Shown here piece after piece: positions 19,502-40,405 of a DNA stretch of 64,000 bases. The notes under the pieces were generated by a model. The model was not told where the DNA came from. It ran no database searches and saw only the letters and a program-made list of their open reading frames with translations. Made by a program: the position numbers and the translations under genes. The first letter of the stretch is position 1, and each line of letters begins with the position of its first letter. Source of the DNA: an uncultured Bacteroidales bacterium (GTDB taxonomy: Bacteria > Bacteroidota > Bacteroidia > Bacteroidales > WCHB1-69); assembly GCA_900315705.1 (NCBI GenBank), contig ONAB01000001.1, positions 143,178 to 207,177 of the forward strand, written 5' to 3'.

Positions 19502-19555
19502 AAGGTCTCCGGTCTTAAGTCTTAAGTCCAAAGTCTCCAGTCTCCCCAAATCGCG
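19502..19555. repeat. heptamer-array intergenic repeat, locus R1
   Basis: Six heptamers aaGGTCT ccGGTCT taAGTCT taAGTCC aaAGTCT ccAGTCT. gtccaaagtctccagtct is the reverse complement of 18 nt within locus R2 (34072..34190). Confidence 0.8.
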
Positions 19556-19720
19556 TCATAAAAGATGGATTTCTTGAATAATCCATTCAAATTTGGTGAC
19601 ACTGGCGTCAAGAATGAAGAGGTTAAAAGAAAATAATGTTGATATATTATACTAAAAATCAACAATATACAAGTTTCAAAAAAAATATTTCAAAAAAATG
19701 ACGGATTATTAAAAAAAAGT

Positions 19721-19728
19721 GTATTTTT
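19721..19728 (+). promoter_or_regulatory. -7 promoter box for tRNA-Asp
   Basis: TATTTTTG lies 21 nt upstream of tRNA position 1. Confidence 0.55.
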
Positions 19729-19748
19729 GCGCCGTCAAAACGACAAAC

Positions 19749-19826
19749 GGATCGGTAGTTCAGTTTGGTTAGAATACATGCCTGTCACGCATGGGGTCGC
19801 GAGTTCGAGTCTCGTCCGGTCCGCCA
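19749..19826 (+). tRNA. tRNA-Asp (anticodon GTC), CCA encoded
   Basis: Hand-folded cloverleaf. Acceptor GGATCGG/CCGGTCC. D stem GTTC/GAAT. Anticodon stem CATGC/GCATG with loop CTGTCAC. T stem GCGAG/CTCGT with loop TTCGAGT. Discriminator G then CCA. Confidence 0.9.
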
Positions 19827-19832
19827 AAAAAA

Positions 19833-19863
19833 AGAGATGCAATGAAATGCATCTCTTTTTTTT
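19833..19863 (+). terminator. intrinsic terminator after tRNA-Asp
   Basis: agagatgca (19833-41) pairs with tgcatctct (19848-56) and is followed by a T-run to 19863. Confidence 0.75.
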
Positions 19864-19948
19864 ATTCCCAAAATAACGCGCCAAAATTCCTTTTTCTTAA
19901 ACGGAAATTTCATAGTTTTGCAACCTGATTTGATTTGACGATTGAAGT

Positions 19949-38434: not shown

Positions 38435-38442
38435 TATCTTTG
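38435..38442 (+). promoter_or_regulatory. -7 promoter box for the cyclophilin gene
   Basis: TATCTTTG lies 20 nt upstream of the ATG at 38462. Confidence 0.55.
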
Positions 38443-38461
38443 CCGTTTAAATTCTGAAAGT

Positions 38462-39175
38462 ATGAAATTGACGAAATTCTTTTTTATTCTATTGAGTCTC
38501 ACGATGTTAACTGCGTGCTCCTCGCAAAAGAAGATTGAATCGGAACCTAAAAAACAGGCCGATCCTGTACAAACGGAAACTAAAAACAACAAGATGACAC
38601 AGATACTGATCAAGACCTCTATGGGCGATATCACCATTGCCCTCTACAATGAGACCCCGCAGCACCGCGACAACTTTATCAAGCTGGTGAAGGAGAACTA
38701 TTACGACGGCGTCCTCTTCCATCGCATCATCAAGGGCTTTATGGTGCAGACCGGCGACCCCGACTCCAAGACCGCGAAGCCCGGCCAGCGCCTCGGTATG
38801 GGCGGCCCCAACTACCGCGTGCCCGCCGAATTCGTGCCCTCCCTCTACCACAAACGCGGTGCCGTGGCTGCCGCCCGCGACAACAACCCCGCGAAGGCCT
38901 CCTCTGGCTCCCAGTTCTATATCGTGGACGGGGAGGTCTATTCCCAGGACAAGCTCAATATGATCGCTGCACGCACCGGCAAGACCTTCTCCCCTGAACA
39001 ACAGAAGGCCTACACCACCGTCGGCGGCGCCCCCTTCCTCGATGGCGACTACACCGTCTTCGGCGAGGTGGTGTCCGGTATGGAGGTTGTTGACAAAATT
39101 GCTGCCCAACCCAAGGACGGCGCCGACCGCCCCGTCACGGACATCAAAATCATCAGCGCAAAAATCATTGAATAA
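38462..39175 (+). CDS. cyclophilin-type peptidylprolyl isomerase, lipoprotein
   Basis: Lipobox LTAC. FHRIIKGFMVQTGDP and SGSQFYIV are cyclophilin signatures. Confidence 0.9.
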   Translation: MKLTKFFFILLSLTMLTACSSQKKIESEPKKQADPVQTETKNNKMTQILIKTSMGDITIALYNETPQHRDNFIKLVKENYYDGVLFHRIIKGFMVQTGDPDSKTAKPGQRLGMGGPNYRVPAEFVPSLYHKRGAVAAARDNNPAKASSGSQFYIVDGEVYSQDKLNMIAARTGKTFSPEQQKAYTTVGGAPFLDGDYTVFGEVVSGMEVVDKIAAQPKDGADRPVTDIKIISAKIIE

Positions 39176-39182
39176 CCCACAT

Positions 39183-39315
39183 TGTCGTAGAGACGGGGCG
39201 TGCCCCGTCTTCGCAAAATAAACGGGAAAACAATGTAGAGACGGGGCGCGCCCCGTCTCTACCAAAAAAAACGGAAAAAACAATGTAGAGACTGGGCGTG
39301 CCCGTCTCCGCAAAA
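39183..39315. repeat. three tandem ~50-bp units, each carrying a GC-rich palindromic hairpin
   Basis: Units start at 39183, 39233 and 39283. Each contains tgtagagacggggcg(t/c)gccccgtct(c) followed by an A-rich tail (caaaataaacgggaaaacaa / ccaaaaaaaacggaaaaaacaa). The third unit is degenerate (gagactgggcgtgcccgtctc). Confidence 0.85.
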
Positions 39316-39328
39316 CAGAAATCGATAT

Positions 39329-40351
39329 ATGAAAACCATAGAAGAAATACGCAAGGAAATCGAAGCCTTCCAAATTGAGAATGCGGAGGCCCTGGAACAG
39401 TTCCGCCTTCAGTTCCTGACCAAGAAGAGCGAGATACAAGCCCTGTTCGCGGAGTTGAAGAATATGCAGCCCGAAGAGCGCAAGAACTTCGGCCAGCTCA
39501 TCAACGATCTGAAGAATGCGGCCGTGGAGCGCTTCAACGCCTTCAAGGAAATCAGCGAGATGCACTCCAGCACCCAGAGCCAGGTGGCCGATGTGACGCG
39601 TCCGTCGCACAATGTCGAGGTGGGCTCTATGCACCCCATCTCCATTATGATGAACCAGGTGCGCCGCATTTTCGAGGACATCGGCTTCACGGCTGTCACG
39701 GGTCCCGACATCGAGGACGACTGGCACGTGTTCACGGCGCTGAACTTCCCCGAGGAGCATCCGGCGCGCGATATGCAGGACACCTTCTTCATTGACCTGC
39801 ACCCCGATGTGCTGCTGCGCACGCATACCTCCTCGCTGCAGGTGCGCACAATGGAGCACCAGCAGCCGCCCATTCGCGTGATTTGCCCGGGCCGCGTGTT
39901 CCGCAACGAGGCCATCACCTCCCGCGCCCACTGCATCTTCCACCAGGTGGAAGGCCTTTATGTGGCTGAGAAGGTCTCCTTCGCGGAGATGAAGCAGACA
40001 TTGCTCTACTTCGCCCAACGGATGTTCGGCCCCGACGTGCGCATCCGCCTGCGCCCCTCTTACTTCCCCTTCACCGAGCCTTCCGCTGAGATGGACATCT
40101 CCTGCAATATCTGTGGCGGCGCCGGCTGCAACCTCTGCAAGCATACCGGCTGGGTCGAGATTCTCGGCTGCGGTATGGTCGATCCTAATGTGCTCGACAA
40201 CTGCGGCATCGACAGCAAGAAATACAGCGGCTTTGCCTTCGGCCTCGGCATCGAGCGTATGACGATGCTCAAATACACCACCGATGACATCCGCCTCTAC
40301 TTCGAGAACGACGTCCGCTTCCTGCGCCAGTTCAAGGCGGCAACGAAGTGA
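39329..40351 (+). CDS. pheS: phenylalanine--tRNA ligase alpha subunit
   Basis: The class II aaRS core is HPARDMQDTFF...RTHTSSLQVR...PGRVFRNE...FPFTEPSAEMD...GFAFGLGIERMTMLKY. 340 aa. Confidence 0.95.
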   Translation: MKTIEEIRKEIEAFQIENAEALEQFRLQFLTKKSEIQALFAELKNMQPEERKNFGQLINDLKNAAVERFNAFKEISEMHSSTQSQVADVTRPSHNVEVGSMHPISIMMNQVRRIFEDIGFTAVTGPDIEDDWHVFTALNFPEEHPARDMQDTFFIDLHPDVLLRTHTSSLQVRTMEHQQPPIRVICPGRVFRNEAITSRAHCIFHQVEGLYVAEKVSFAEMKQTLLYFAQRMFGPDVRIRLRPSYFPFTEPSAEMDISCNICGGAGCNLCKHTGWVEILGCGMVDPNVLDNCGIDSKKYSGFAFGLGIERMTMLKYTTDDIRLYFENDVRFLRQFKAATK

Positions 40352-40405
40352 TAGACTTAAGACTTGAGACGTAAGACTTGAGAACGTAAATCGCAAATCG
40401 TAAAA
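40352..40405. repeat. heptamer-array intergenic repeat, locus R5
   Basis: tagactt aagactt gagacgt aagactt gagaa cgtaaat cgcaaat cgtaaaa. It starts immediately after the pheS stop and has the same orientation as R2/R4. Confidence 0.85.

Follow-up and report, generated by a model that had tools for sequence, protein, structure and literature searches.

Among the long simple repeats of bacteria, arrays of heptanucleotide units are the most common. In heterocystous cyanobacteria, the short tandemly repeated repetitive (STRR) heptamers that Mazel et al. are said to have described in 1990 are reportedly dispersed, intergenic and tandem, with several unit types per genome, and some of them reportedly form inverse-complementary arms between the genes of an operon. 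The bacterial interspersed mosaic elements (BIMEs) of enterobacteria are ordered mosaics of short modules in the spacers at gene 3' ends. Here we analyze heptamer arrays in an uncultured Bacteroidales bacterium of the rumen, starting from five loci (R1 to R5) in a stretch of 64,000 nucleotides of contig ONAB01000001.1 (hereafter the window) and extending the analysis to the window's own assembly (G000; 2.996 Mb, 47 contigs, 52% G+C). We show that the arrays are hypervariable heptamer simple-sequence repeats (SSRs) that form the ordered arms of a spacer mosaic containing repetitive extragenic palindrome (REP)-like hairpins, and that stop and start codons anchor them with conserved polarity. They occur in a different phylum from the STRR heptamers, the TAnnTTTG promoters of G000 being Bacteroidales-like, and are built from other sequences, no STRR unit being among them.

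This kind of repeat is already known, though poorly understood, and our arrays match heptanucleotide SSRs down to their gene-anchored polarity. A preliminary description of R1 to R5 knew of no described function for them; heptanucleotide arrays as such have been described as long simple-sequence repeats (LSSRs), as TAACTGA repeats and as GGGNATC repeats. The LSSRs of Mrazek et al. 2007, to the extent that they are summarized in PMC4679880, resemble the present arrays in their tandem 7-nt units, their number and length beyond chance, their mostly intergenic location, their patchy phylogeny and their whole-unit length changes. The arrays here differ from LSSRs as portrayed in that summary by a strict multi-module order on one strand, flanking REP-like hairpins, anchoring on stops and starts, and AT-rich units. 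In a second example, the GGGAATC heptamers of Xanthomonas and GGGGAYT heptamers of Nostoc are dispersed genome-wide, gene-anchored and mostly transcribed (Rehm et al. 2015, PMC4692102). As in our genome, they are enriched between aligned and convergent open reading frames (ORFs) and depleted between divergent ones, and their G-rich strand points away from the gene (PMC4692102). However, our genome has many coexisting unit classes and a REP-hairpin mosaic, and its arrays vary between strains whereas the Xanthomonas and Nostoc loci are unusually stable (PMC4692102). A third example is the TAACTGA direct repeats of Beggiatoaceae, Cyanobacteria and some Bacteroidetes (MacGregor 2015, PMC4679880), which share with our arrays the mixed heptamer assemblages in Bacteroidetes, the strain indels in 7-nt steps and the contigs that break inside arrays. 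Our units are different and most of our arrays are stop-anchored, while the module grammar and the REP link are not described in PMC4679880. Lastly, BIMEs are ordered spacer mosaics like ours. REPs with REP-associated tyrosine transposases (RAYTs) share with our genome the GTAG-head hairpins, elements that supply the stop codon of a flanking ORF, and Y1 genes flanked by such hairpins (PMC3733652). Relative to all of these, what is new here is the full mosaic grammar with REP hairpins, the link to REPs and Y1 transposases, and the allelic replacement of a whole block.

An ordered mosaic of heptamer arrays and hairpins

Direct reading of the letters and Tandem Repeats Finder (TRF) agree with the preliminary description that period-7 tandem arrays are present at all five loci. 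Compared to dinucleotide-preserving shuffles of the window, in which 0.00 matches are expected for each pattern, we find 10 matches to CGYAAATCGYAAAT, 7 to AGACNNNAGACNNNAGAC and 6 to the A pattern. We use A, B and C for arrays of NNAGAAT, NNNAGAC and CGYAAAT, respectively, and X, Y and Z for the modules of a REP-like block. In G000, self-identity at lag 7 identifies 245 loci versus 2-49 at lags 5, 6 and 8-11 (168 versus at most 29 under a stricter threshold), a genome-wide population to which R1 to R5 belong, and TRF returns 452 period-7 rows covering 15.4 kb. Using a gene caller trained on the genome's own long ORFs (2255 genes, 88% coding), 193 of the 245 loci fall wholly between genes, and 10 are for the most part coding. 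Two features of heptanucleotide LSSRs are found here: head-to-tail units of 5-11 nt above chance in length and frequency, and a preference for non-coding DNA among unit lengths that are not a multiple of three. These counts are lower bounds because arrays break short-read assembly and several contigs end inside them (C22:150-268, C37:108-142 and C43:101-128). The longest C array has 19 units over 133 bp (G000:C19:12470-12602). Period-8 loci (29-49) are also well above those at lags 5, 6, 10 and 11.

Rather than the three kinds of heptamer first recognized, the genome contains at least 10 unit classes, including CGYAAAT, NNAGAAT, NNNAGAC, a TTAGCYR type (D), TAACCCT, TCACTGA, ACCATAG and many more. 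Each unit consists of a constant 4-nt core and 3 variable nt, and the A, B and C units are spread over dozens of unrelated spacers. TAACTGA itself is not among the abundant units of G000, the nearest class being ACTGATC/TCACTGA with 9 arrays.

Read on one strand, the modules follow a single order: (NNAGAAT)n, (NNNAGAC)n, an optional X-Y-Z hairpin block in 0 to n copies, and (CGYAAAT)n. The neighbor matrix for the six module types, with both strands scored, is dominated by the transitions A>B (11), A>X (10), B>X (23), B>C (24), X>Y (37), Y>Z (40) and Z>C (18). On the same strand the matrix is upper-triangular save for repeated X-Y-Z blocks (Z>X 7, Z>Y 7) and one Z>B, and no other reverse transitions were seen among these modules in G000. 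In total, 179 adjacencies are ordered on the same strand versus 10 between opposite strands. The fixed order proposed for the window is thus upheld and extends to the optional block, although the T-run listed there as a module of its own is instead a junction of variable length (3-6 T) behind the last AGAC. R1 to R5 are short forms of this grammar (A-B-C, B-C or B alone), and the preliminary description missed that such arrays are the arms of a larger REP-hairpin mosaic anchored on stop and start codons.

The conserved segment that follows many B arrays has three parts. Module X is TTCCTTGAGCAG followed by a 5-bp hairpin, GCCCC-GNA-GGGGC or GTCCC-GAA-GGGAC, whose stems covary; Y is a GTAG- or GTAA-headed hairpin (CCCCRCAC...GTGTGGGG); and Z is made of repeats of ~22 nt, GCC(G/T)TGAGGAGG. 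Regular expressions for X and Y have 109 and 97 matches, respectively, on the two strands of G000, and at 23 loci the passage from B to X is constant, AGACT being followed directly by TTCCTTGAGCAG. Only X and Y are short imperfect palindromes with a GTAG-type head, as REPs are. The heptamer arrays themselves are non-palindromic, and the outer modules of this mosaic therefore differ from those of BIMEs in being heptamer microsatellites. Rfam finds only a tRNA in the window; for six mosaic loci all of its matches are far below the gathering score, and X, Y and Z have no Rfam family. Four genes for Y1 transposases (~150 aa, PF01797) have X/Y-type hairpins on both sides, in one case followed by a C array. 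On the IS200 model (cut-off 55) these transposases reach 63 and 53 bits, but on REP_Tyr_transpos (cut-off 80) only 26-29 bits. Because they score as IS200-type and fall below the curated RAYT model, we call the center of the mosaic REP-like and do not assign it to the RAYT-REPs.

The link to Y1 genes suggests an alternative in which the mosaic is a non-autonomous mobile element of Y1 (IS200/RAYT-like) transposases and its arms are arrays of 4-nt cleavage or target cores (AGAC, AAAT) that change by cutting and rejoining, not by slippage. We regard this as unlikely. The REP-like nature of X and Y, the hairpins around the four Y1 genes, the constant junction between B and X, and the dispersal of A, B and C units over dozens of unrelated spacers are all consistent with it, and known REPs also abut and supply stop codons (PMC3733652). 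However, a hairpin block is lacking from most arrays (R1, R3 and R5 among them), the Y1 proteins are under the RAYT cut-off, and we find neither terminal inverted repeats nor target duplications. For the latter reason a miniature inverted-repeat transposable element, as considered in the preliminary description, is also rejected: R1, R3 and R5 have no inverted repeats, and those at R2 and R4 are two divergent promoters, the right one at R4 lying 35 nt beyond the array.

Position and polarity at gene ends

Arrays are found in 24% of convergent, 14% of co-directional and 8.9% of divergent spacers. Of the 162 co-directional spacers with arrays, 100 have their first array no more than 10 nt from the upstream stop (median 4 nt), and 25 have an array as close as that to the downstream start; in convergent spacers, the array abuts a stop in 36 of 42. 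An A or B unit usually includes the stop triplet, and some of these arrays begin as far as 12 nt inside the ORF. Orientation is equally regular. At stops, every A array (35/35) and every B array (29/29) is in the sense direction, that is 64 of 64 together, and C arrays beside start codons are sense in 13 of 13. C arrays beside stops are mostly antisense (14 versus 5); there they are the distal end of a mosaic whose anchor is the convergent gene opposite, as in R3. G exceeds C on the strand that reads away from the adjacent gene in 110 versus 27 arrays at stops and in 28 versus 2 at starts, so that the G-rich strand is sense after stops and antisense upstream of ORFs, the pattern given by Rehm et al. 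2015. The four or more G-tracts that the same study requires for a G-quadruplex are absent, as TGAGAAT, TTAAGAC and CGYAAAT contain no G-tract. A general polarity of A over T or of purines was examined and rejected, being absent for units other than A, B and C; the rule that holds is that of G over C. Array orientation has no relation to the sign of local GC skew (71 versus 72), a weak test in that skew in this draft genome did not track gene orientation.

Two simple ideas on function were assayed computationally. Stops in all three frames occur within 30 nt of 32% of array-bearing stops versus 7% of stops without arrays, with the antisense strand also enriched (22%). The arrays of the window have minimum free energies of -6 to -13 kcal/mol (z of -1.2 to +1.9 versus shuffles), the sense strands of R2 and R4 fold worse than shuffles, and sense copies of the C unit have far less structure than antisense ones. 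The broader idea that arrays are selected to be unstructured did not hold as a general rule (-0.107 kcal/mol per nt for the arrays versus -0.143 for random heptamer arrays; 43% versus 37% unstructured).

Such polarity could also reflect recognition of the transcript. According to this second alternative, the arrays are register-specific sites in mRNA or single-stranded DNA for a protein with tandem oligonucleotide-binding (OB) folds, such as ribosomal protein S1 or a cold-shock-domain protein with ~7-nt footprints, that organizes translation termination and re-initiation between cistrons without Shine-Dalgarno pairing. The uniform orientation of C arrays into starts and of A and B arrays at stops would be expected from such sites, as would a unit of constant 4-nt core and 3 variable nt, and a similar proposal has been made for the TAACTGA repeats of Beggiatoaceae (PMC4679880). 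Against it, R2 and R4 are located between divergent promoters and need not be transcribed, and at least 10 unrelated unit classes exist in one genome. We therefore consider a protein-site role improbable.

The layout of the five loci is given in Table 1. The genes around them encode a TonB-dependent receptor, an endonuclease/exonuclease/phosphatase (EEP) family protein, GmhA (gmhA; SIS domain), an M20 peptidase, methylmalonyl-CoA mutase, a cyclophilin, PheS (pheS) and a TMEM260-like protein. The loci had been called strictly intergenic, and all five do lie between called genes; strictness fails at R3, where the M20 peptidase gene has its TAG stop (34881-34883) within the first B unit, TTTAGAC. 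The C end of R3 faces the gmhA stop. The TonB-dependent receptor gene has its TAG stop 22 nt before the beginning of R1, which is among the few B arrays that are antisense to both of their neighbors, here on the plus strand. The ATG of the TMEM260-like gene follows the end of R5 by 13 nt, and because there is no promoter box between the two, R5 is probably an intercistronic spacer.

Table 1. Coordinates of R1 to R5 and their parts in the window
Feature	Position	Strand	Composition
R1	19505-19546	-	B array alone, six NNNAGAC units; as read on the plus strand GTCTCCG GTCTTAA GTCTTAA GTCCAAA GTCTCCA GTCTCCC
R2 left promoter, EEP-family gene (leftward)	34073-34092	-	reverse complement of TTATTTATTGTATCTTTGCA, holds Bacteroidetes -7 box TAnnTTTG
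R2 A arm	34093-34120	+	TGAGAAT TGAGAGT GGAGAAT TAAGAAT
R2 B arm	34121-34149	+	TTTAAGAC TGGAGAC TTTGGAC GTAAGAC
R2 T6 junction	34150-34155	+	follows B arm
R2 C arm	34156-34190	+	five CGYAAAT units, ending at gmhA promoter TTATTGTATTTTTGCC
R3	34825-34885	-	B from 34885 down to 34844, then C from 34841 down to 34825
R4 left promoter, methylmalonyl-CoA mutase gene (leftward)	38277-38297	-	20-mer identical to R2 promoter
R4	38298-38392	+	A 38298-38325, B 38326-38351, T6 38352-38357, C 38358-38392
R5	40349-40405	+	pheS TGA stop 40349-40351; B 40352-40384, units TAGAC TTAAGAC TTGAGAC GTAAGAC TTGAGAA; C 40385-40405, units CGTAAAT CGCAAAT CGTAAAA...

At R2 and R4 the mosaic is fused to a promoter. The exact 20-nt sequence TTATTTATTGTATCTTTGCA, reading towards the gene, is joined to an A-B-T6-C mosaic upstream of different genes, and it adjoins an A array only at R2, R4 and C45:149480 (G000:C45:~149460-149548). 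The EEP family and methylmalonyl-CoA mutase genes behind it are mutually unrelated. A fourth copy with 2 mismatches is found at G000:C20:~192784-192854, and every other promoter of the genome differs from the 20-mer at two or more of its 20 positions. From this distribution, the promoter looks as if it had been copied along with its array.

A third alternative is that the arrays act at the DNA level, as promoter elements (UP-like elements, curvature or transcription-factor iterons) or as terminators. R2 and R4 are directly upstream of two -7 boxes, the three identical promoter copies each sit beside an A array, and three 7-bp units correspond to two helical turns, with period-21 higher-order repeats visible in TRF. 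However, arrays are rarest in divergent spacers, they are anchored on stop codons and not on promoters, and their length varies between strains. Neither a G+C-rich hairpin followed by a T-run nor a fold better than that of shuffles is found in the arrays. This reading is thus very unlikely, and the terminator, UP-element and curvature roles raised earlier fail on the same grounds and for want of a fixed distance to promoters. For intrinsic terminators in particular, the T6 junction has no preceding hairpin.

Several other repeats and signals are present in the window. Just to the right of R1 is a 7-bp hairpin, ATGGATT/AATCCAT (19563-19590), with CTTTTAT after it on the minus strand, and a tRNA gene (19749-19823) lies 160 nt beyond. 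Given that R1 is antisense to both neighbors, an unannotated minus-strand transcript may end here. Upstream of pheS we find a 48-bp tandem repeat in 2.7 copies (39187-39315), each copy consisting of a GTAG-headed hairpin (GTAGAGACGGGGCGTGCCCCGTCT) and an A-run. The spacer between the peptidyl-prolyl isomerase gene and pheS is 49 nt shorter in strain L160, which probably has one copy fewer, and several congeners have the GTAGAGACG...CGTCTCTAC hairpin of this repeat behind the stop of gmhA. Tandem 11-12-nt repeats, AGTAACCAAGT and AGGGGACAAGT, occur at 21118-21187 within the ORF at 19949-21397, in the linker between its HATPase_c_4 and Fic-like_C domains. Lastly, an AT-rich 27-bp tandem repeat, TAATTATGAATATTAACAGATTTTTAT, is present in about 2.4 copies at 55499-55567.

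Variation between strains and species

Assemblies of the window's species are common in public collections, and comparison of strains shows flanks that are essentially identical while the arrays differ. Copy number, which was already noted to differ between the five loci, changes between strains in whole units, as in LSSRs. For instance, R2 of strain L157 has one more A unit (+7 nt) and two fewer C units (-14 nt) between identical flanks, and R3 differs by several units, in both number and type, in strains L156 and L157. The short R5 shows one substitution and a 1-nt shift. At R4 the change is of another kind: the A and C arms enclose B + T6 in the window strain but X-Y-Y-Z in strain L160. Because a REP-like block is present in L160 between the A and C arms of R4, the short and long forms of the mosaic are alleles. 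We found no identical donor copy of the L160 block in G000, the best match being 88.5% over 131 nt. Presence and absence of a REP block between strains is what mobilization by Y1 transposases would produce; however, the center is replaced between common arms (31 nt versus about 120 nt), with no clean insertion or excision.

The nearest congener, G021, is syntenic at 81-85% nucleotide identity. It has heptamer arrays in both spacers that flank gmhA, but with other units (CCAACNN, CATAGTT and CAAGTTT), together with X- and Y-like hairpins. The X and Y modules are thus kept between the two species while the heptamer units differ, a further point against a Y1 element that includes the arms. In the G021 spacer upstream of gmhA (L121, G021:C40, 2430-2580), inverse-complementary arms, GTTGGNN... 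and ...CCAACNN, stand beside the X-/Y-like REP hairpins, and these arms could pair into a long hairpin.

Extending the comparison to 24 congeners, we find arrays at the gmhA ends in about 14. B units follow the gmhA stop in G010, G018 and G005, C units precede the ATG in G005 only, and the other units at these positions include CTGAAAC, TAACCCT, GCAACAG and TCACTAA. (CGYAAAT)3 is present in only 4 of the 24. Sister species therefore have arrays in the same spacers and with the same polarity but with other units, and in several congeners the arrays fill the gmhA-end spacer from stop codon to ATG. Spacers filled in this way, and the conservation of position and polarity but not of sequence, can be accommodated by an OB-fold reader of the transcript, whereas different units at the same spacer in sister species and copy-number variation between strains are hard to reconcile with a sequence-specific binder. 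Y1_Tnp genes are present in 23 of 26 congeners, including some without arrays at the gmhA locus, which does not favor the transposase alternative.

Across the order, arrays with an AGAC core are found in 25 of 151 genomes (148 genera), many of which also contain arrays of the reversed core used as a control. More than 119 genomes from a wide range of phyla contain (CGYAAAT)4, and those loci carry many other heptamer arrays. Horizontal transfer was considered for this distribution and rejected: in host genomes rich in other heptamer arrays, any given unit is expected somewhere. We read the wide occurrence of (CGYAAAT)4 as reflecting the general abundance of heptamer SSRs, and heptamer arrays of many units in many phyla again argue against a dedicated Y1 element. 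A polarity of the C unit across phyla was not established (38 sense versus 24 antisense, by a crude ORF heuristic that is unreliable in high-GC metagenome-assembled genomes, MAGs).

Origin of the arrays and significance

Based on these data, we propose, with a probability of roughly 0.6, that R1 to R5 are heptanucleotide SSR arrays forming the outer arms of a polar, BIME-like intergenic mosaic, that they change by slippage and recombination, and that they are mostly tolerated spacer DNA. Among the three readings offered in the preliminary description, microsatellite-like repeats come closest to this. In the proposed mechanism, slipped-strand mispairing would make arrays grow and shrink in steps of ±7n. 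Because the same units sit in many spacers, they could serve as homology arms for ectopic recombination or gene conversion, which would carry modules, the REP block among them, from one spacer to another and make them alike; the genome's IS200-like Y1 transposases may act on this block as well. Polarity would be kept by selection from the neighboring genes and not by a dedicated binding protein: post-stop arms would be favored as rich in stop triplets, and pre-start arms as G-poor and weakly structured, which would suit Bacteroidota starts that lack a Shine-Dalgarno sequence. The arrays would then be self-renewing spacer DNA that is for the most part tolerated and whose role in mRNA is permissive at best.

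A number of points weigh against this proposal. Slippage alone explains neither why period 7 is used exclusively nor why the same few units occur in dozens of unrelated spacers. Gene conversion finds no identical donor for the L160 block, whose closest G000 match is at 88.5% over 131 nt, and the Y1 transposases score as IS200-type, under the REP_Tyr_transpos cut-off. At the RNA level, backup stops in all three frames are a tendency, arrays are in general not less structured than random heptamer arrays, and selection there is something that we only infer. In addition, the gene caller is crude, and distances of a few nucleotides from gene ends carry some error.

A more far-reaching view would see in the arrays a polarity-encoded code for spacers that the Bacteroidota of this study share with the distant phyla of Xanthomonas and Nostoc in published work, the G-rich strand of each arm being directed away from its gene. 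It would be built and kept by a dedicated machine with a 7-nt register, either an OB-fold reader of mRNA or a Y1 transposase cutting 4-nt cores, and would mark gene ends and starts while its arms act as portable homology for promoter and REP cassettes. We hold this to be unlikely.

Whatever maintains them, the arrays have practical consequences: they break short-read assemblies and shift predicted stop codons and C-termini, which matters for the annotation of Bacteroidales MAGs. With its strict module order, anchoring on stops and starts, live polymorphism and link to REPs and Y1 transposases, this genome is a clean case for studying period 7 and the fixed polarity at gene ends. Public assemblies from rumen and gut contain this species in abundance, so that the dynamics of its arrays can be traced in populations.

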